A stretch of DNA of 58,443 nucleotides from an uncultured archaeon (GTDB lineage Archaea; Asgardarchaeota; Lokiarchaeia; Sigyniarchaeales; SOKP01), in NCBI GenBank assembly GCA_964632315.1, contig CAZWEM010000024.1, positions 1-58,443 of the forward strand. Direction: 5' to 3'. Positions 36,866-45,376 of this stretch are shown here, piece after piece; the stretch's first letter is position 1; every line of letters starts with the position of its first letter. The notes under the pieces are model-generated. The model was given only the letters and a program-made list of their open reading frames with translations, searched no databases and was not told where the DNA came from. The position numbers and the translations under genes are program-made.

Positions 36866-39800
36866 ATGATTGACACAAATTCGAATTTGAAGAAACGCAA
36901 AGAGAGAAAAAACTTAAAAGCACTTCAACCCGATTATCCACTTGTTGCAATTGGAGCATCTGCTGGTGGATTAGATGCTTTTGAACATTTTTTCACAAAT
37001 TTATCTTCAGATGGTAAAATGAGTTATGTATTGATAACTCATTTAGATCCCACACATGAAAGTTCTTTAGACGAATTAATAAGCCGATATACAGATTTAG
37101 AAGTAAAAACCGCTCAAGATGGGATGAAAGTCACTCCAAATACGATTTTTATACTCCCTCCTAATAGAACGATGAGCATCTCAGAAGGTATTTTGTTTCT
37201 TAAAGAACCCACCAAACCACGTGGACAAAGATTACCGATTGACCATTTCTTTCGTTCTTTAGCTATCGATCAAAAAGAAAATGCGATTGGAATTATATTT
37301 TCTGGTACTGGTAGTGATGGTACTTTAGGATTACGAGAAATTAAGGGTGTAGGAGGTTTAGCAATTGTTCAGGACCCTGATTCTGCAAATTATAAAGGAA
37401 TGCCCCAAAGTGCAATTCAAAACGTTAGAGTCGATATAATCGGAACTCCGGTAGAAATTGCTAATTTGCTCTTGAAATATAGAGAAAATCTTGGGAAAAT
37501 TCAATCAGCAAAAAAGAATATCGAAGTTGAAAGGGCTTTAGCAGACATTTTTCACAGTTTAAAATCCAATTATGGGCAAGATTTTTCGATGTATAAGCCT
37601 AGCACAATTAATCGAAGAATTGAAAGGCGAATGATAGTGAGGCAAATTCCTGATATTTCTGATTATGCTAATTTTATATTAGAAAATCAAGAAGAACTTG
37701 ATCTACTTTTCCGAGAGCTACTAATTGGAGTTACCAATTTCTTTCGAGATAAGAAAGCATTTGCAAAATTCAAATCTGAAGTCATTCCATTTTTAATTAG
37801 AAATAAACAAATAAACGATACTTTAAGAGTTTGGGTTCCTGCGTGTTCTACAGGAGAAGAAGCATACTCAATTGCTATTATTTTACTGGAAAAAACGAAA
37901 CTTTATAAAAAAAACTTGAAAATACAGATTTTTGCTACAGATGTAGATAAAGACGCAGTAGAAAAAGCTAGAATTGGTAAATATCCAGATAATATAATAG
38001 CAGACATCGATTCTGATCTTCTCGTGAGATATTTTGATCAAGTTGATAATATTTACGAAATTAAGAAAAAAGTAAGGGATAAAATAGTATTTGCTGTTCA
38101 AAATGTAATAAGAGATCCGCCTTTTTCAAAGATAGATCTGATTTCATGTAGGAATTTACTTATCTATCTCACAGCTGAGATTCAAAAAAAATTACTTGCA
38201 TTATTTCACTATACATTAAATCCTGATGGGATCTTGTTTTTAGGTTCTTCTGAATCACTTGGCTCTATGTCAGATATATTTGATCCTATAGATCGTAAAT
38301 ATAAAATATTCAAGAAAAAAGAAATTCCATCATATAAAATGGATGAGATATCCATATTTCCGCCATTGTTTGATCGTTTTAAAGTCAAGAAGTTTGAAAC
38401 TGGGAGAGATGTAGTGACGCTTGGATTAGAAGAGTTGATGCACACAGAATTATTAAATGCATTTTCTCCTCCTAGTGTTATTGTTGATGATAAAAATAGG
38501 ATATTGTACTTTCACGGTCAAACCAATAAATTTTTTAGCCCTCCAGAAGGTTTTGCGAAAATGGATTTAATTTCAATGGCTAAAGATCCATTAAAAGTGG
38601 AATTATCAACTTCAATACGTAAAGCAAGATTAAAAAAAGAAGATGTGAAGGTAAAGAATATTCAGATTAATGAAAATGGGGATAATGTGAATATCGATTT
38701 AATAATACACCCAATATTGGAACCACGCTCAATGAGAGACTTAATGATGATAGCGTTCAAGGAAGTCCCATTGGAGTCAAAGGAGCAAGACTTTTTGACC
38801 ACAAAAACTGGTGAAGATTTAATTGATTCACGAATAAAATATTTAGAAGAGGAATTAGAATCTACCAAGAAACATTTGCAAAGTACAATCGAGGAACTAG
38901 AAACATCTAATGAAGAGTTGAAATCAACAAATGAAGAACTACAGTCCTCCAATGAGGAACTCCAGAGTACTAATGAGGAATTGCAAACCTCAAAAGAAGA
39001 GCTTCAATCCATAAATGAAGAATTAATTGCAGTAAATACTGAATTAGAAGAAAAGATCCAAGAATTATCCAAGGCTAATAATGATCTGTCTAATCTAATG
39101 AAGAACTCAAAAATAGCTATTGTCTTTCTTAATCCAGATTTAACCATTAAACGCTTTACACCCGAATTCAGTAAGATTTTCAACGTTATTGAGTCAGATC
39201 TAGGACGTCCAATCTCACATATCGTTTCTAATTTAAAACATGCAACCCTTACTGAAGATATAAGAGAAATATTACAAAATTTAGGGATTTTAGAAAAAGA
39301 AGTCCAAACCATTGATGAAAACTGGTATAAGATGAAAATCTCACCCTACTTAACTGATGATAAAAAAATTGAGGGAGTAGTATTAACATTTTCGGAGATC
39401 ACCATGCAAAAAAAAGCTACTGAAGAAATAGAATTTTACCGAGATCTCCTTGTTCATGAAATTAATAACATCTTTCAAGTATTCTCTTCCAGTATTGAAA
39501 TGATAAAAGATCGAATTGATACTAATGAAGAGATAGATCATTCCTTTACCATTATTAGCAAAAATATTACCAGAGCAAGAAAGTTAATTAAAAATGTCCA
39601 AAAGATAGAAGAAATGTCAGATACTCCAGTTTACTTAGAACCTATTAATTTCCTCCCGATTTTAAATGATGTAAAAAATCATATCACTGAAATTGAGGAA
39701 AAAGACAGTCAAGCTGAAATTAAAATCGAAAATTTGTTAGATTCAGATACTATATTCATAGAGGGTGATGCTTTAATGAGCGATTTACTAGAAAATATTA

Positions 39801-40111
39801 TTCTAAATAGCATCCGTCACAATGATAACCCGCTTGCTGAAATTTCAATTAAACTTTCTGGAATAACTAAAAATAACACAGATTATCTAAAATTAGAATT
39901 TATTGACAATGGAATTGGGATTCCAGATCAATTAAAAGAAAACGTGTTCCAACGTTTATATTATAAACGAAAGAAAGGGATTGGGATTGGTTTGTCCGTA
40001 GTAAAGAGAATTGTAGAACGATATGAAGGAGATATATGGGTGGAAGATAGGGTGGAAGGAGATCATAAACAAGGGTCTAAATTTATCGTATTATTGCCAA
40101 TGAGTTCTTAA
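36866..40111 (+). CDS. CheB methylesterase - CheR methyltransferase - PAS - coiled coil - PAS - histidine kinase hybrid
   Basis: GASAGG, HL.P, SGTGSDG (CheB); GVTNFFRD, CSTGEEAYS, ISCRNLLIY (CheR); NEELQS heptads; HEINN H-box, DNGIGI, GIGIGL. Confidence 0.92.
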   Translation: MIDTNSNLKKRKERKNLKALQPDYPLVAIGASAGGLDAFEHFFTNLSSDGKMSYVLITHLDPTHESSLDELISRYTDLEVKTAQDGMKVTPNTIFILPPNRTMSISEGILFLKEPTKPRGQRLPIDHFFRSLAIDQKENAIGIIFSGTGSDGTLGLREIKGVGGLAIVQDPDSANYKGMPQSAIQNVRVDIIGTPVEIANLLLKYRENLGKIQSAKKNIEVERALADIFHSLKSNYGQDFSMYKPSTINRRIERRMIVRQIPDISDYANFILENQEELDLLFRELLIGVTNFFRDKKAFAKFKSEVIPFLIRNKQINDTLRVWVPACSTGEEAYSIAIILLEKTKLYKKNLKIQIFATDVDKDAVEKARIGKYPDNIIADIDSDLLVRYFDQVDNIYEIKKKVRDKIVFAVQNVIRDPPFSKIDLISCRNLLIYLTAEIQKKLLALFHYTLNPDGILFLGSSESLGSMSDIFDPIDRKYKIFKKKEIPSYKMDEISIFPPLFDRFKVKKFETGRDVVTLGLEELMHTELLNAFSPPSVIVDDKNRILYFHGQTNKFFSPPEGFAKMDLISMAKDPLKVELSTSIRKARLKKEDVKVKNIQINENGDNVNIDLIIHPILEPRSMRDLMMIAFKEVPLESKEQDFLTTKTGEDLIDSRIKYLEEELESTKKHLQSTIEELETSNEELKSTNEELQSSNEELQSTNEELQTSKEELQSINEELIAVNTELEEKIQELSKANNDLSNLMKNSKIAIVFLNPDLTIKRFTPEFSKIFNVIESDLGRPISHIVSNLKHATLTEDIREILQNLGILEKEVQTIDENWYKMKISPYLTDDKKIEGVVLTFSEITMQKKATEEIEFYRDLLVHEINNIFQVFSSSIEMIKDRIDTNEEIDHSFTIISKNITRARKLIKNVQKIEEMSDTPVYLEPINFLPILNDVKNHITEIEEKDSQAEIKIENLLDSDTIFIEGDALMSDLLENIILNSIRHNDNPLAEISIKLSGITKNNTDYLKLEFIDNGIGIPDQLKENVFQRLYYKRKKGIGIGLSVVKRIVERYEGDIWVEDRVEGDHKQGSKFIVLLPMSS

Positions 40112-40279: not shown

Positions 40280-40981
40280 TTAATCAATTGGAACGATTAC
40301 AATTCCCTGGTTTTTCTGAATAGTAAAATTAAGCTTTCCTTTAAGATAATTATTTCCTTGATATTTAATGATTTCAATTGTTCGATATCCTCCTTTTAAT
40401 GGATTTTGGAGTTTGATGATACTATCACTTGTTTTATTAATTATTTCGGAATGTATTTTTTTTAGAATTTCACCATCGATTTCATCAATAATAAGCGAGG
40501 TTACGGAATATGAATTTAACCACGATTTTAGTTGCAAAATGCCCTTTTTGATAGTTTCGATATCTGGATACTTACTAAATAAAACACTTAATGAATCCAT
40601 AACAATTCTTTTTGCTTTTATTTTTCTTACTGCCATTTGAATTTGAAGTAGTAACCCACCTAAATCAAAATCCCCACTAATTTCAAAATCATCTTTAAAA
40701 TGAGAAGATACATCAATAAACTCCCATAATCCTTGATTCACATGCTCTGAGATGTCCCATCCTAATTCTTTTGTCTTACTTATAACCGTTTCCTGATTTT
40801 CATCAAGAGTGATAAACACACCTGGCTCGTTAGATATGAGAATTCCCCTTATGAGAAATTGCACCCCAAAAATTGTTTTACCACTCCTTGGAGGGCCCAT
40901 AACAACAGTTAATTTCTTTTCTGGTATCCCTTTTTTACAAAATTTATCAAATCCTTCAATTCCAATAGGAATTTTTGACAT
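40280..40981 (-). CDS. kaiC: single-domain KaiC (CI-like) ATPase
   Basis: GIEGFD, Walker A GPPRSGKT, EPGVFITLDE, GWD, GDFDLGGL B-loop region, KRIVMDS, RTIEIIKYQG; only one RecA domain. Confidence 0.85.
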   Translation of the reverse strand: MSKIPIGIEGFDKFCKKGIPEKKLTVVMGPPRSGKTIFGVQFLIRGILISNEPGVFITLDENQETVISKTKELGWDISEHVNQGLWEFIDVSSHFKDDFEISGDFDLGGLLLQIQMAVRKIKAKRIVMDSLSVLFSKYPDIETIKKGILQLKSWLNSYSVTSLIIDEIDGEILKKIHSEIINKTSDSIIKLQNPLKGGYRTIEIIKYQGNNYLKGKLNFTIQKNQGIVIVPID

Positions 40982-41000
40982 AATAAAATCCTTAGAGTTT

Positions 41001-41270
41001 TTATGCTTCACTATTTATTTGTAATAAAGAACTAATCTCCAGAGTGGAGAGATCTCCTACGATCTGTTTTGAAGGTTTTGGTAAATATTTAATCAATAAT
41101 GGTGTGGCTATAATGCTTAATGATTTAGCAATTTTAGGATTTTCTTTAAGATCCAATATAGTTAAATTACATTCATGCCCTTTACAGACTTTTTCTAAAT
41201 TTTCCATTGTTTTAATAGATTTAGAGCAGTTTTTATCCATCACGAATAATAAAAATGAAAACTTCGTCAT
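41001..41270 (-). CDS. kaiB: KaiB family protein
   Basis: ILDLKENPKIA...IIATPLLIK.LP.P...IVGDLS matches the KaiB signature. Confidence 0.88.
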   Translation of the reverse strand: MTKFSFLLFVMDKNCSKSIKTMENLEKVCKGHECNLTILDLKENPKIAKSLSIIATPLLIKYLPKPSKQIVGDLSTLEISSLLQINSEA

Positions 41271-41379: not shown

Positions 41380-42279
41380 TCAATATAAGATTTCGATGAT
41401 CTTAGTCCAATAATTCTTAAATGACAAGATATTTTTATTTAATGAGTTTCTGCTTTTTATTTCTCGGCTAAATTCCCTAAATATTTCTTTTATTCTAAGA
41501 GAGTTCAAATAAGTGATAGATCTTGTAATTACAGCTAGCATGTATATTTTTTTCCCTTGACGCTCATTTGAGCAAGAATACGAATCTAAAAATAAGAAAC
41601 AACTTCTTTCAATATTTTTAAGATTTAAAAGTAAACTTTCACTCGCTGATATTGAATCATGACCATAAATTAAATTTGCGGCATGAAATAATTGTACTGT
41701 GATTTTATCGATGGGGAGAGTTATTTTTCGTTTGCTGGGATACGTTTTTTTATTAACTGGTCCTAATTTATCATCCCAAACTGCATGAATCAAGTAGGTA
41801 TCTTTGATTAATTTATCTTTAGTGCTCTCTGTTTGAATAGGTACCTGTATGTCAACCGTTTTTTCAAAATGGTCATAAACTTGTCCAGATAATTGTTTTT
41901 CATTTAATTTTTCATGAATGATTCTAATCAAATCCTCTTCTTCTATGGGTTTTACAAGGAATTCATCTGCCCCTAATTCTTTTGCATAATCAATATCCTT
42001 TGGCATTGAAAGTGCAGTCAAGAAAATGAAGGGTACTTGAGAATATTTAGGATTTGATGAAATTTTCTTTAAAAATTCATACCCATCTATTTCGGGCATC
42101 ATGATATCACTAATGATTATATCAGGTAAATAACCTTCACTCGAGAGTATCTTGAGTGCTTCATTGCCATTTTTAGCCGAAGCTACCTCAAAATCATGAT
42201 CTTCTAAAATTAAATGAAAATTGAATAACAAATCTTGATTATCTTCTACAAGCATTACCTTTTTGAGTCCATTCTTCAT
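41380..42279 (-). CDS. response regulator: N-terminal REC plus C-terminal longin/uDENN-like domain
   Basis: LVEDN, IISDIMMP..DG, PFIFLTA, FLVKP (REC); C-terminal LIHAVWDDKLGP..KKTYP; output-domain call is less certain than the REC call. Confidence 0.8.
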   Translation of the reverse strand: MKNGLKKVMLVEDNQDLLFNFHLILEDHDFEVASAKNGNEALKILSSEGYLPDIIISDIMMPEIDGYEFLKKISSNPKYSQVPFIFLTALSMPKDIDYAKELGADEFLVKPIEEEDLIRIIHEKLNEKQLSGQVYDHFEKTVDIQVPIQTESTKDKLIKDTYLIHAVWDDKLGPVNKKTYPSKRKITLPIDKITVQLFHAANLIYGHDSISASESLLLNLKNIERSCFLFLDSYSCSNERQGKKIYMLAVITRSITYLNSLRIKEIFREFSREIKSRNSLNKNILSFKNYWTKIIEILY

Positions 42280-42298
42280 TATTCCCACCAATATTTTT

Positions 42299-44050
42299 CT
42301 AACTTATACGAGAATTTGGCAAAACAATTGAAAACGTTGTTCCTCGATCTAAATTTCTTTTAGCATGGATCTTTCCACCATGCATTTGTATTATTGTTTT
42401 AGCGATAGAAAGTCCCAATCCAATATCTTCGATATGAGCGACCCTTTTAGAGCGATAAAAGCGTTCAAAAAGATGAGATAGATCTTCATCATTGATTCCA
42501 ATTCCATGATCCACAAATTCGATTATAAGTTCATTAACATTTTTCTCATTAAGACGGTTAAAATTGGAATTCACAATTATTTCTGAATCTCTTTTTGAAT
42601 ATTTAATCGCATTATCTATGAGAATTTGAAAGACCTGTTTTATCTTATTTTTATCAGCATTTACTTTAATATTTTTATTTATGTTGTCTACTATCTTTAT
42701 ATTTTTCTCTTTTGCCAAGGGTTCCATAGATTCAATTGATTCAGATATTTCATTACTAAGTGAAAATCTTTCTATGTTTAAATTAATGCTACTATCATTT
42801 AATTGAGTAAAAGTTACCAAACCTTTAATTAAATCATCAATTGATTTAAGATTTCGATATACTCCATTAAATATCTTTTTTTCCAATTCAGAATTTATTC
42901 TTTCTCTATTTCTCTCGAGATATTTTAATGACATTTGTATGACCGATAATGGAGTTCGTAATTGATGAATGATATTTGAGACAAACTTCTCAAATTTTTT
43001 TTCAGTTGCTTTTAGCTTGGTGATATCTGTACCATAAATGTTTACGTATTCTGAACTCTTGATCGGAATTATCGTCAATAAATACTTATGAGACTTTCTA
43101 TCGATTTCAATTGTTTTTACTTTATCTTTTAATAATGCTTGATTAGTTACTTTCTGAATAACTTCTGGGAGAGATTTTTTCTCATTTAACAAAAAAATTT
43201 TTTTAGCTCTTTCATTAGCAAAAAGAATCTTTCCTTTTGATAATCGAAGTATTGGAGCGGGATTTTCTGAAGGAAATTTACCAAGATCTAATAATTGATT
43301 GTTTCTTATTTCCAATAACTCCTCAAGATGGTCTTTATATTCTTCTAATTCTCTCTCATTTTTTTTGAGGTCGCTAATATCTGAAAATATTAATCCTAAA
43401 TTCTCATTGCATCTAAATGCTTTCGCAATTAAAGTGCGTGGTCCAAATTTTTCATTTGTAGTGATTTCATCTAAAATCAATGGATGTCCAGTTTCTAAAA
43501 CATGCTTGTATAAGTTGAATCTTTCTGTTTCTTCAATTCCCGGTACTAATTCAGTGATATTTTTTCCTATTAAATCCTTTTTGGACAAATCTGGAAAAAA
43601 ATCACTCATCAAACTCTTATTAGCATCGACAAAGTTGAGATTTGAATCATAAAGGACGAATCCATCGATACTTTCTTCCCAAAAATTAGCATACTTAATC
43701 TCAAATTGAGAAAAGCTACTCATATCTAAAATAGTACCAGATATTTCTTCGATATCTCCTGTTGAACTAAATCTTGGAATTCCAACAATTGTAATGAATT
43801 TCGAATTACCATCTTTATTGATCATATGATGATTTTGAACGAACGGAGCTTTATTGGAGGTTATTTTCGAAAATAATATTTGAAATAGGTCTGAATTTTG
43901 AGAGTGAATAAGATTCATAAAGAAATGGGAGTTATCGATTGCAGAAAAATCAATGGAATCTTTTTTTAAATCCCATTTCCATTGACCTACAATATAAATA
44001 TTTTTTTCATCTTTATAATCTCTATTGGAGGATATGCTGTTTTTCATCAT
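42299..44050 (-). CDS. multi-PAS cytoplasmic sensor histidine kinase
   Basis: PAS-like segments, HQLRTPL H-box, LIDNAIKY, DHGIGI, FERFYR, GLGLSI...HGG. Confidence 0.9.
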   Translation of the reverse strand: MMKNSISSNRDYKDEKNIYIVGQWKWDLKKDSIDFSAIDNSHFFMNLIHSQNSDLFQILFSKITSNKAPFVQNHHMINKDGNSKFITIVGIPRFSSTGDIEEISGTILDMSSFSQFEIKYANFWEESIDGFVLYDSNLNFVDANKSLMSDFFPDLSKKDLIGKNITELVPGIEETERFNLYKHVLETGHPLILDEITTNEKFGPRTLIAKAFRCNENLGLIFSDISDLKKNERELEEYKDHLEELLEIRNNQLLDLGKFPSENPAPILRLSKGKILFANERAKKIFLLNEKKSLPEVIQKVTNQALLKDKVKTIEIDRKSHKYLLTIIPIKSSEYVNIYGTDITKLKATEKKFEKFVSNIIHQLRTPLSVIQMSLKYLERNRERINSELEKKIFNGVYRNLKSIDDLIKGLVTFTQLNDSSINLNIERFSLSNEISESIESMEPLAKEKNIKIVDNINKNIKVNADKNKIKQVFQILIDNAIKYSKRDSEIIVNSNFNRLNEKNVNELIIEFVDHGIGINDEDLSHLFERFYRSKRVAHIEDIGLGLSIAKTIIQMHGGKIHAKRNLDRGTTFSIVLPNSRIS

Positions 44051-44147: not shown

Positions 44148-44690
44148 TTATTTCATTAAAGTTTTATCAAAAACAGTATAAATAGTTGAGGTGAAGATTT
44201 CAAAATAGATGTCATCAGGAATAAGTTGTTTTATCCTATAACTTAATTGTTCAATTGTTTTTTCATCAATATCAGGTCTTAAATCTTCTAAATCCGGATC
44301 ATGTTTATGAATGAAAATTGTTATGTCTAAATTACCCCCAAATCTTTCAATTTTTTCAATGATGCTTTTAAAATAATCCAATGCTAAATCATATCGCTCT
44401 TTATCTTGAATATCAATAACGTAAACTATTTTATATGCTTCCTTTAAATATTTTTCAAAATTATCTAAATAGTCTTCTCGATATACTTTTTGACCGCCTA
44501 AATCCCAAATACTATATCTTGAACCATTGATTTCATGCTGTATTATGTCCGCACCGAGAGTAGGGTTAAGTGAGATATAATCAAGGAGATTCGTCTTTCC
44601 AATTAGATTTAGTACAATAGATGTTTTGCCACTATTATCCAATCCCATAACAAGAATTTTGGAAGAGGAATTTTCATCTGTGCTACTCAT
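44148..44690 (-). CDS. small GTPase, Arf/Rag-like
   Basis: G1 GLDNSGKTS, G2 PT, G3 WDLGGQ, G4 HKHD, G5-like TSTIY. Confidence 0.9.
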   Translation of the reverse strand: MSSTDENSSSKILVMGLDNSGKTSIVLNLIGKTNLLDYISLNPTLGADIIQHEINGSRYSIWDLGGQKVYREDYLDNFEKYLKEAYKIVYVIDIQDKERYDLALDYFKSIIEKIERFGGNLDITIFIHKHDPDLEDLRPDIDEKTIEQLSYRIKQLIPDDIYFEIFTSTIYTVFDKTLMK

Positions 44691-44722: not shown

Positions 44723-45376
44723 TTAGAATACTTTTTCAATATCATCCATTTTCCGTAAATTTTCAAGTCTTTTTTTTTCTAGATCTAACACGAAAGAAGC
44801 ACTATAGGACAGGAATTTGAGGATATCATAATTTTTTAGAGTGTAATACTTGATATTCTCAATTTTTTCCGAACTTAGAATGCCGGTTTTTATAAGTTCA
44901 TTTACTTTTTGAGATGCATGAGCTTGGCTTATATCCAATTCCTCTTGAATTTCTTTTGAATTTTTTTTATTATTCTTGAGTAATTTAATAAGATCAATCT
45001 TTACGGGATCTGCTAAAGATTTTAAGAAATCCGCAAGTAAATTTTCAAGTCTTTTTTTTTCTAGATCTAACACGAAAGAAGCACTATAGGACAGGAATTT
45101 GAGGATATCATAATTTTTTAGAGTGTAATACTTGATATTCTCAATTTTTTCCGAACTTAGAATGCCGGTTTTTATAAGTTCATTTACTTTTTGAGATGCA
45201 TGAGCTTGGCTTATATCCAATTCCTCTTGAATTTCTTTTGAATTTTTTTTATTATTCTTGAGTAATTTAATAAGATCAATCTTTACGGGATCTGCTAAAG
45301 ATTTTAAGAAATCCGCAATATAATCTGATAAAGTACTCATACCATCTATTCCCTTCCTATTTGAAGATATAACCAT
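44723..45376 (-). CDS. ArsR-family winged-HTH regulator with an exact internal duplication (alternative start at 45340)
   Basis: FLKSLADP.K..LI.LL...EI..EL.ISQ..ASQ....L...GI present twice. Confidence 0.8.
   Translation of the reverse strand: MVISSNRKGIDGMSTLSDYIADFLKSLADPVKIDLIKLLKNNKKNSKEIQEELDISQAHASQKVNELIKTGILSSEKIENIKYYTLKNYDILKFLSYSASFVLDLEKKRLENLLADFLKSLADPVKIDLIKLLKNNKKNSKEIQEELDISQAHASQKVNELIKTGILSSEKIENIKYYTLKNYDILKFLSYSASFVLDLEKKRLENLRKMDDIEKVF
44755..45318. repeat. exact tandem duplication, 2 x 282 nt
   Basis: 44755-45036 appears identical to 45037-45318; 94-codon unit. Confidence 0.95.

Follow-up and report, generated by a model that had tools for sequence, protein, structure and literature searches.

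The response regulator encoded at positions 41380 to 42279 of the window, the whole 58,443-nucleotide stretch of DNA analysed here, from a Loki-type Asgard archaeon, joins a receiver domain to a longin of the type found in FLCN, SMCR8 and NPRL2. On balance it is likely to be a phosphorylation-gated regulator of the small GTPase encoded in the same gene cassette, acting through a longin homologous to those of FLCN, NPRL2, SMCR8 and C9orf72, with R240 as the candidate arginine finger. Its predicted activity is probably that of an arginine-finger GAP. The gene and its parts are as follows.

41380..42279, (-) strand: REC-longin response regulator gene, an open ORF of 299 aa from ATG, stop included
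41917..42258, (-) strand: receiver (REC) domain, residues 8-121, Pfam PF00072 Response_reg, E 1.2e-26
41800..41916, (-) strand: helical linker, residues 122-160, partly of low confidence in the full-length AlphaFold2 (AF2) model
41383..41799, (-) strand: FLCN/SMCR8/NPRL2-type longin domain, residues 161-299, from AF2, Foldseek, VIA-align, the protein Atlas and hhalign

An alternative start, a TTG upstream at 42291, would give a protein of 303 aa; homologues of the regulator are about 300 aa each and share 51-98% identity in the C-terminal part. The receiver scores 93.5 bits against a curated Pfam cut-off of 30.2, and the Pfam scan of the regulator found no domain beyond Response_reg. The earlier note had described an intact receiver from its EDN, SDIMMP, T and KP motifs, and the active-site set is indeed complete (E12-D13, the phospho-acceptor D58 in SDIMMP, T88 and K110-P111, codons verified) and invariant among 10 close homologues. 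In the full-length AF2 model, the receiver superimposes on CheY and RR468 with an rmsd of 1.0-1.5 Å by Foldseek. The linker that follows forms helices at 130-141 and 152-159, with pLDDT below 50 at 142-151, and the pTM of 0.48 for this model leaves the relative placement of receiver and longin uncertain.

Foldseek searches with the full-length model were drowned in receiver matches and uninformative on the output domain, which therefore had to be modelled separately. This C-terminal domain of 140 aa, as noted earlier, opens with YLIHAVWDDKLGP, and it is conserved: 129 cluster representatives match it at E ≤ 1e-3, and 80 of these still do so at E ≤ 1e-10. Modelled alone with AlphaFold2 from an alignment of 102 relatives, it reaches a pLDDT of 91.2 and a pTM of 0.87 and adopts the longin topology as defined in PMC10933270. 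The sheet is five-stranded, and the order is strand-strand-helix-three strands-two helices (E13-20, E24-31, H41-56, E65-71, E76-86, E94-103, H108-128 and H138-149 in the domain-only model), without the N-terminal helix packing of the roadblock type; the helix, beta strands and terminal helix proposed in the earlier note agree with these elements. The same note had named a Foldseek search as a check and an unrelated fold as the outcome that would speak against a longin. The search returned longins: the top 26 rows are longin-bearing chains, bar one uncharacterised protein at rank 23, and are led by FNIP2 (3.9e-5), GATOR1 (6.7e-5) and the Lokiarchaeal longin 8yqg (1.4e-4), then SEAC, FLCN and Lst4.

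The best VIA-align match is FLCN (Z 13.9, rmsd 2.2 Å, 133 of 150 residues aligned), with further Z scores of 13.4 for Lst4, 12.3 for C9orf72, 11.8 for 8yqg, 11.1 for FNIP2, 10.8 for SMCR8 and 10.5 for GATOR1. The NPRL2/3 and Npr2/3 longins are also among the top Foldseek and VIA-align matches, and across both methods the identity of the domain to solved longins is only 9-13%. In the protein Atlas the domain reaches a TM of 0.78 to a Heimdall cluster that is partly Pfam Folliculin and 0.73-0.76 to the SMCR8, FLCN and C9orf72 clusters; an Atlas feature search gave scores of at most 0.81, to be read as a lead only. A roadblock identity for the domain was ruled out by topology and by lower Z scores (7-8 for roadblock domains vs 8-13.9 for longins). 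The regulator ends at residue 299, immediately beyond the last of the longin's two C-terminal helices, without a DENN or an NPRL2-specific C-terminal domain. The output domain had been called longin/uDENN-like, and the longin half of that description stands; with no DENN module downstream, this is a stand-alone FLCN/SMCR8-type longin rather than part of a DENN protein.

The relationship is a distant one in sequence. A single-sequence phmmer search of the C-terminal domain against the PDB gave only chance matches (ribosomal P0, E 0.1 or worse), and the family profile of 102 sequences had no PDB match at E ≤ 10. Pfam searches of the 102 family members produced only scattered matches, all above E 0.002; just 2 of them touch Folliculin, at E 0.14, and the regulator itself has no direct match to Folliculin (PF11704) or NPR2 (PF06218). 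The NPR2 profile matched nothing in the genome, nor in any control genome, so its absence here shows nothing. When the 102-member family was aligned by hhalign with Asgard proteins that pass Pfam Folliculin, the match reached 96.5% at E 9e-10, and motifs fell in the same register (WDd..GP on fDe..GP, and D...RGG on D..ARGG). The proposed homology to Folliculin-type longins rests on this one profile-profile step together with structure. Two motifs stand out in the alignment.

41758..41778, (-) strand: WDDKLGP, the WD and GP motif at the turn between strands 1 and 2, residues 168-174, codons verified
41560..41562, (-) strand: codon of R240, candidate arginine finger in the loop joining strands 4 and 5, from the family alignment and hhalign

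Across the 102-sequence family alignment, W168 and G173 are each conserved in 100 of 101 members and P174 in 96 of 101. Column 240 holds R in 79 of 97 and K in 5, and R240 is absent in about 13% of members. R240 aligns with the invariant ARG of the Asgard Folliculin-positive longins, and by way of these proteins we infer that it is equivalent to FLCN R164, NPRL2 R78 and SMCR8 R147. The GP motif and Arg finger mark GAP-type longins and are shared by Asgard longins; the GP motif is confined to GAP longins and missing from those of TRAPP, adaptin and DENND (PMC12290439). ARF1 GAP activity requires C9orf72 W33/D34 and SMCR8 R147 (PMC8213707).

The regulator belongs to a cassette in the order HTH, 180-aa Arf/Rag-like GTPase, PAS kinase, REC-longin, and is followed here by KaiB and KaiC genes.

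44723..45376, (-) strand: ArsR/TrmB-type winged-helix gene at the cassette head (Pfam), 217 aa, vs 111 aa in orthologues
44148..44690, (-) strand: stand-alone Arf/Rag-like small GTPase, 180 aa, Pfam Gtr1_RagA 5.9e-22 and Arf 2.6e-19
42299..44050, (-) strand: PAS-HisKA-HATPase histidine kinase, 583 aa (Pfam), H-box HQLRTPL at residue 362
41001..41270, (-) strand: KaiB, PF07689 5.6e-15, 109 nt downstream of the regulator
40280..41011, (-) strand: single-domain KaiC-type ATPase, PF06745 6.7e-52, overlapping KaiB by 11 nt

The kinase gene ends 19 nt upstream of the regulator's ATG, and a kinase adjoins the REC-longin gene in most loci. The GTPase does lie two genes upstream of the regulator, where it had been placed earlier. 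Its motifs (G1 GLDNSGKT, T44, G3 DLGGQ with Q67, and G4 HKHD) are invariant columns in the GTPase alignment, and it is without a C-terminal roadblock domain. The HTH protein owes its length of 217 aa, rather than 111, to a 282-nt segment repeated perfectly in tandem (44755-45318), and in contigs from two runs one copy of this repeat is skipped.

The cassette recurs in 29 of the 40 loci examined, from several genera and families and including a paralogous copy in the same genome, counts that overstate independent support since the loci are mutually related. For the other 11 loci, some of them on short contigs, no GTPase was found within the flank examined. The paralogous locus, on contig C11, holds GTPase, kinase and REC-longin in one cassette and is 42% identical, and orthologous metagenome contigs likewise retain the cassette. 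KaiB and KaiC are kept in those orthologous contigs, whose regulators are 81% and 61% identical in the C-terminal part. Queries with KaiB/KaiC detected neither in 38 other loci examined, nor did a Pfam scan of the genes flanking the paralogous regulator. KaiB and KaiC were therefore rejected as core cassette parts, being found only in this orthologue group.

A search of the genome with the GTPase profile ranks precisely the two cassette GTPases first (2e-80 and 5e-71), followed at 2e-43 by a fusion protein of 405 aa; the two REC-longin genes of the genome pair with the two members of a single stand-alone GTPase subfamily. The genome also encodes two proteins, of 1125 aa and 470 aa, in which related longins and GTPase domains are directly fused. 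At the level of the phylum, the family is present in 91 of 301 genomes, and homologues are named Promethearchaeota. Another family contributes proteins of about 650 aa with E values of 1e-13 to 1e-17 against the longin profile; single-sequence queries did not pick these up.

A predicted complex of two longins with the GTPase, GTP and Mg scores 0.78 (median of three runs) vs 0.37 for the highest-scoring of the three controls, with our own alignments and the riding ligands (GTP, Mg) departing from the conditions under which the score was calibrated. That mark is attained by 58 of the 80 solved complexes and by 2 of the 110 mismatched pairs. Between runs at least 77% of contacts agree, with a partner pLDDT of at least 82. 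The predicted interface comprises residues 168-175, the first helix and 240-241 on the longin side, and D18-N19, 42-46 and Q67-Y70 on the GTPase side; in this pose the GP loop and R240 come to lie against the P-loop and switches of the GTPase, with WDDKLGP contacting Q67 and the P-loop. The score is a measure of model confidence, and the model may be reproducing a known arrangement on the strength of fold similarity, similar complexes having been solved (C9orf72-SMCR8-ARF1 and FLCN-FNIP2-RagC). The idea put forward in the earlier note, that the regulator acts on its neighbouring GTPase, is supported rather than proven by the conserved cassette, the pairing within the genome and this complex prediction.

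In the mechanism that we propose, the adjacent PAS histidine kinase would phosphorylate receiver D58, as suggested by the intact motifs and the adjacency of the two genes. Phosphorylation would then alter how the longin assembles or how accessible it is, most simply through receiver-driven dimerisation that sets two longins side by side, a gating step that we can only infer because the arrangement of the two domains is uncertain in the full-length model. The longin pair is predicted to cradle the 180-aa GTPase, whose P-loop and switches I and II would face the WD/GP loops and the first helices of the longins. R240, in the strand 4-strand 5 loop, could then serve as the arginine finger that speeds GTP hydrolysis, as motif conservation and homology suggest, and kinase input would in that case turn the GTPase off. 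The HTH protein at the head of the cassette probably controls cassette transcription, and the downstream KaiB/KaiC pair may add a further input in this orthologue group. With the WD and the Arg on one polypeptide, a homodimer could stand in for a heterodimer. A more specific version of the mechanism, which we hold tentatively, would be a homodimeric phosphorylation-gated Arg-finger GAP that combines the roles of C9orf72 (WD) and SMCR8 (Arg) in one polypeptide, is dedicated to the cassette GTPase, and is coupled to KaiB/KaiC in this orthologue group. If true, it would represent a minimal prokaryotic FLCN/GATOR1/C9orf72 switch under a histidine kinase, here also coupled to KaiB/KaiC.

A longin that binds the cassette GTPase could instead be a GEF, or a nucleotide-state-specific platform or effector, with phosphorylation turning the GTPase on or relocating it. 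Most longin/roadblock dimers, such as TRAPP, Mon1-Ccz1, Ragulator and DENN, work in one of these ways; roadblock/longin platforms act mainly as GEFs (PMC10933270), and the longins of TRAPP, sedlin, Mon1-Ccz1, BLOC-3 and DENND1 also match the domain, with VIA-align Z scores of 8-10.5. The incomplete conservation of R240 is compatible with a GEF or platform role, and the predicted switch contacts suit a GEF as well as a GAP. The best matches, however, are GAP-type longins (Z 10.5-13.9), the GAP-specific GP motif of PMC12290439 is nearly invariant in the family, and the Arg conserved in the family falls on the ARG of Folliculin-type longins, all of which argue against this unlikely alternative. 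Somewhat less likely still is a regulator that does not act on the neighbouring GTPase, the latter being merely co-regulated. Such a regulator would, in this orthologue group, mainly be an output or input element of KaiB/KaiC, for which RpaA, SasA and CikA, which serve the cyanobacterial clock, provide a model, or would have another target such as a membrane or SNARE-like protein. The position of KaiB and KaiC after the regulator, here and in the orthologous contigs, fits this reading, as do the 11 loci without a GTPase nearby and the existence of GTPase-unrelated roles for longins (PMC10933270). KaiB/KaiC, however, went undetected in the 38 other loci and beside the paralogue, whereas the GTPase recurs in most loci, and the GTPase-longin fusions in the same genome and a complex prediction that passed its controls also speak for an action on the GTPase.

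A last alternative, which we consider highly improbable, would make the C-terminal domain a generic alpha/beta sandwich of profilin/roadblock-like kind that resembles the FLCN-type longins by convergence and uses its WD..GP and Arg as structural residues. Convergence would account for the lack of a significant direct Pfam or PDB sequence match and for the low identity to solved longins, and middling Z scores are common among small alpha/beta folds. The domain nevertheless has the topology of a longin, with two C-terminal helices and no roadblock-type N-terminal helix packing; its match to FLCN lies far above the roadblock rows, and the hhalign match to Asgard Folliculin-positive proteins has both motifs in register. 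A phosphorylation-gated longin regulator of the cassette GTPase remains the preferred reading.

A class of proteins that includes this regulator was described by Liu et al. in an Asgard study that was reportedly published in Nature in 2021. The portion of the preprint used here reports Asgard NPRL2-like longins fused to two-component signalling domains, proposes Asgard growth control through two-component systems with 'eukaryotic' regulators, and finds most ESP genes outside conserved neighbourhoods (Liu et al., bioRxiv 10.1101/2020.10.19.343400). The fusion class is already published, and the regulator, an Asgard protein that unites a two-component domain (here REC) with an NPRL2/FLCN-like longin, is a further example. 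What is named here, and in neither case in that portion of the Liu et al. text, is a GTPase partner and a conserved GTPase-kinase-regulator cassette.

With the eukaryotic longin GAP complexes FLCN-FNIP (RagC/D), GATOR1 NPRL2-NPRL3 (RagA/B) and C9orf72-SMCR8 (Arf), the regulator shares the fold (Z 10.5-13.9), the GP and WD motifs and the Arg in finger position, along with an Arf/Rag-like GTPase as candidate substrate class and, in the predicted pose, a GTPase seated on two longins. Unlike them, it has no DENN or NPRL2 C-terminal domain, its cassette GTPase lacks the Rag roadblock, and its input would come from a fused receiver rather than from nutrient-sensing complexes. The Asgard FLCN/SMCR8-type longins of PMC12290439 carry the same GP and Arg motif pair at equivalent structural positions. 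The Lokiarchaeal Roadblock-Longin protein 8yqg, a top structural match, is dimeric by the title of its PDB entry. Those longins are stand-alone, DENN-linked or roadblock-linked; here the longin is fused to a receiver, and the cassette names a candidate partner.

In Myxococcus xanthus, the polarity module of MglA (GTPase), MglB (roadblock GAP) and RomR (response regulator) similarly uses phosphorelay proteins and a roadblock/longin-superfamily regulator to control a small Ras-like GTPase. The actinobacterial conservon, with its CvnA kinase, CvnB roadblock and CvnD GTPase, is a similar prokaryotic arrangement. In these systems the receiver sits on a different protein from the roadblock GAP, the fold is that of a roadblock and the GTPases are of MglA type, whereas the regulator described here has a FLCN-type longin and an Arf/Rag-like GTPase. 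The thaumarchaeal REC-NitrOD3 is, like it, an archaeal response regulator, and the output domain of REC-NitrOD3 is related to Roadblock/LC7 and so falls in the same superfamily. REC-NitrOD3 comes from another phylum and the roadblock branch, with no GTPase link described; in the part of the census drawn on here, Asgard genomes have no REC-longin entry (Galperin et al. 2018, PMC5847659).

The GTPase partner of Asgard longins (ArfR or Rag/Gtr) and their status as GAPs have been posed as questions (PMC12290439), and Asgard GTPase genes are seldom in operons with longin genes, which makes it hard to match partners (PMC10933270). The cassette is an exception, offering a small, soluble matched set of a kinase, a 299-aa regulator and a 180-aa GTPase in which D58, W168/D169 and R240 are clear targets for mutation. 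Its value lies in this directly testable pairing through a fixed GTPase partner, rather than in a new kind of system. If the GAP activity is true, the arginine-finger mechanism of longin GAPs would predate eukaryogenesis, and would do so under two-component control.

The gene under study (41380-42279, minus strand), which lies in an AT-rich window of about 30% G+C, encodes from its ATG a regulator of 299 amino acids whose sole Pfam match is a receiver domain (residues 8-121, E 1.2e-26). The receiver residues E12-D13, D58 (in SDIMMP), T88, and K110 are all present and are invariant across ten close homologs; homologs of the regulator carry the name Promethearchaeota, that is, Loki-type Asgard archaea. 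The C-terminal part opens at about residue 160 with YLIHAVWDDKLGP and has no Pfam match, and a PDB sequence search with it gave no meaningful match. It belongs to a real family, with 129 cluster representatives at E<=1e-3 in an exhaustive HMMER search, 80 of these at E<=1e-10. Most members are about 295 amino acids long (receiver plus domain), some are stand-alone proteins of 130 to 200 amino acids, and long multidomain proteins account for a few. The ORF, the receiver residues, and the homolog family thus confirm the earlier note's observation of an intact receiver followed by a domain with this opening.

In a full-length AlphaFold2 model (pLDDT 79), the C-terminal elements run strand, strand, helix, three strands, two helices. 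Because a fold search with this model matched receiver domains only, the C-terminal domain was aligned with 101 relatives and folded by itself, giving the same element order at higher scores (pLDDT 91.2, pTM 0.87). This modeled order is that of a longin, as defined against roadblock and profilin (PMC10933270). First-ranked in Foldseek against the PDB were FNIP2 (3.9e-5), GATOR1 NPRL2/3 chains, the longin domain of a Lokiarchaeal Roadblock-Longin protein (8yqg, 1.4e-4), yeast SEAC Npr2/3, FLCN, and Lst4, with DENND10, TRAPP, C9orf72, DENND1, sedlin, and Sec22b lower. Scanning 48,161 chains by a method independent of Foldseek gave Z scores of 13.9 for FLCN (133 residues at rmsd 2.2 A), 13.4 for Lst4, 12.3 for C9orf72, 11.8 for 8yqg, 11.1 for FNIP2, 10.8 for SMCR8, 10.5 for GATOR1, about 10 for TRAPP/sedlin, and 7-8 for roadblock proteins. 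With longins on top in both comparisons rather than an unrelated fold, the longin-like output domain proposed earlier is supported. A search of the ESM Atlas matched a Promethearchaeota GTPase-fusion cluster (TM 0.79) and a Heimdall cluster that is in part Pfam Folliculin (TM 0.78), as well as SMCR8, FLCN, and C9orf72 clusters. No DENN domain follows the C-terminal longin, which is therefore a stand-alone longin.

The regulator is the fourth of six successive genes on the minus strand, and a small GTPase gene does lie two genes upstream of it, as the earlier note stated, with a kinase gene between.

Successive minus-strand genes around the regulator
44723-45376, minus strand: ArsR/TrmB-type winged-helix gene (Pfam)
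44148-44690, minus strand: small GTPase, 180 aa (Pfam Gtr1_RagA 5.9e-22, Arf 2.6e-19)
42299-44050, minus strand: PAS-HisKA-HATPase histidine kinase (Pfam)
41380-42279, minus strand: REC-longin gene under study (ORF, Pfam receiver)
41001-41270, minus strand: KaiB (Pfam)
40280-41011, minus strand: single-domain KaiC ATPase (Pfam)

From the winged-helix gene through KaiB the intergenic gaps are 32, 97, 19, and 109 nt, and KaiB and KaiC overlap by 11 nt. The winged-helix gene is doubled to 217 aa by a perfect 282-nt tandem duplication (44755-45318), its orthologs being 111 aa long. In two public runs, contigs connect 44754 directly with 45037, the single-copy form, but assemblers collapse perfect repeats, and the duplication is either real and recent or an assembly artifact. 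Convergent with the Kai genes is a 1081-aa CheB-CheR-PAS-HATPase fusion (36866-40111, plus strand) that has a coiled-coil made up of SxNEELQ repeats and is kept at the same position in orthologous contigs.

In the phylum, 91 of 301 genomes have a match to the longin profile, most of them in two families (60/68 and 21/21). Across 40 loci (38 further ones fetched, plus the window and a second locus in its own genome), a GTPase related to the window GTPase adjoins the regulator or is one gene off in 29, a count that is not independent because the loci are kin. The commonest arrangement reads exactly HTH, GTPase, kinase, REC-longin; among the variants, the GTPase is divergent or sits downstream, the kinase is absent, or the GTPase domain is found in larger proteins. 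The window's own genome (4.45 Mb, 119 contigs) holds exactly two REC-longin genes, and a single long protein carries a related domain. The second REC-longin, on contig C11, is 42% identical to the first, retains WDDKLGP and the Arg, and follows a 173-aa Gtr1_RagA/Arf-type GTPase and a MASE3-PAS kinase in the same order. A profile of the GTPase family ranked exactly the two cassette GTPases best of the 51 GTPase ORFs in this genome (2e-80, 5e-71), followed by a 405-aa fusion protein (2e-43), so cassette GTPases form a distinct stand-alone subfamily.

The long protein (1125 aa; C12:90329-93706, L005 6330-9707, minus strand) is a direct GTPase-longin fusion. Its residues 146-307 are an Arf-type GTPase and residues 319-401, approximately, a relative of the regulator longin domain; it also has PAS domains and an N-terminus of no assigned domain. 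Many related genomes encode similar proteins, about 1130 aa long. A 470-aa protein (C54:15333-16745, L056 1267-2676, plus strand) joins an N-terminal longin passing Pfam Folliculin, with FDDDGP and ARG motifs, to a Rag/Arf-like GTPase domain; its contig holds two further GTPase-fusion genes. The paralogous cassettes and the GTPase-longin fusions argue for a functional tie of longin and GTPase. A further family of the phylum has proteins of roughly 650 aa (among them L089 and L090; G130:C9:190443-190850, G259:C1:4564742-4565146) that match the longin profile near their middle or end (E 1e-13 to 1e-17). In some genomes REC-longin genes also occur in tandem or close pairs, or before a short stand-alone longin (L086 6652-8523; L083 2974-3888, 7568-8458; L082 2780-4464), which hints at possible heterodimers as in eukaryotic GAP complexes.

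Pfam Folliculin and NPR2 were out of reach for the regulator and its family by direct sequence-profile search, so the link to Folliculin was tested via intermediates. Pfam Folliculin scored above its cut-off in 12 of the 251 genomes of the phylum searched, and eleven matching proteins from these, in which the D..GP and D..ARG motifs are invariant, were aligned. Comparing the longin family with this alignment, hhalign gave a probability of 96.5% (E 9e-10, 112 columns), placing the family WDd..GP on fDe..GP and D...RGG on D..ARGG. Within the 102-member family, W168 and G173 are each conserved in 100/101, P174 in 96/101, D169 in 78, and R240 in 79/97 (Lys in 5). In the domain-only model the R240 position falls in the strand 4-strand 5 loop, which by sheet topology would adjoin the GP-bearing strand 1-strand 2 turn. 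A GP motif and an arginine finger mark GAP-type longins (FLCN, NPRL2, SMCR8, C9orf72), and some Asgard longins share both, raising the question of which GTPases these act on (PMC12290439). ARF1 GAP activity requires W33/D34 of C9orf72 and R147 of SMCR8 (PMC8213707), whereas the regulator family has WD, GP, and Arg all in a single chain.

Two longin copies were folded together with the GTPase, GTP, and Mg, using the two family alignments. Against 0.37 for the best among three controls, the complex scored 0.78 (the median over three runs), a mark attained by 58/80 solved complexes and 2/110 mismatched pairs in a calibration from which the in-house alignments and riding ligands differ. At least 77% of contacts agree between runs, and partner pLDDT is at least 82. 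The confident interface takes in, from one longin copy, 168-175 (the WD/GP loop), first-helix positions, 207-209, and 240-241, and from the second its GP loop and first helix. The GTPase contributes the P-loop residues D18-N19, switch I residues 42-46 (including T44), and Q67-Y70 together with the switch II helix. This predicted pose, which matches the way ARF1 is reported to sit on the C9orf72-SMCR8 longin pair (PMC8213707), supports binding of the GTPase by a longin pair, although the pass may reflect fold likeness because such complexes are already solved.

What is established is that the receiver is intact, that the neighboring gene encodes a kinase with an H-box, that the longin fold is of the FLCN type and its WD/GP/Arg motifs are conserved, and that the cassette, itself conserved, keeps a single GTPase subfamily. 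The earlier note proposed a phosphorylation-gated regulator of the GTPase, and we give somewhat better than an even chance to a kinase-gated longin pair acting on it: the kinase would phosphorylate D58, phosphorylation would gate longin dimerization or access, the pair would bind the cassette GTPase, and R240 would serve as arginine finger. The main rival, a GEF or platform role of the longin, seems unlikely to us. A Kai-centered or otherwise GTPase-independent role appears quite improbable. That the longin resemblance is convergent, given the profile alignment with Folliculin-type proteins, is highly improbable.

Two orthologous metagenome contigs (regulator C-terminal parts 81% and 61% identical) retain the block complete with KaiB and KaiC, which were not detected in the remaining loci examined, including next to paralogous cassettes, and are therefore an accessory of the window's ortholog group. 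In the window (40280-41270) and in orthologous contigs (8025-9012 in L091, 7645-8632 in L093), the genes right after REC-longin are KaiB and single-domain KaiC; KaiB docking on the receiver, or KaiC feeding into the phosphorelay, is a possibility.

In the literature searched on Asgard longins and response regulators we found no description of the GTPase-kinase-REC-longin cassette; an Arf-family preprint makes no mention of gene neighbors, and the accessible portion of an archaeal two-component census (PMC5847659) lists no REC-longin. The architecture itself is known as a class from Liu et al. (bioRxiv 10.1101/2020.10.19.343400), who reported Asgard proteins in which NPRL2-like longins are fused to two-component domains. 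The REC-longin/GTPase cassette matters mainly for its testability.
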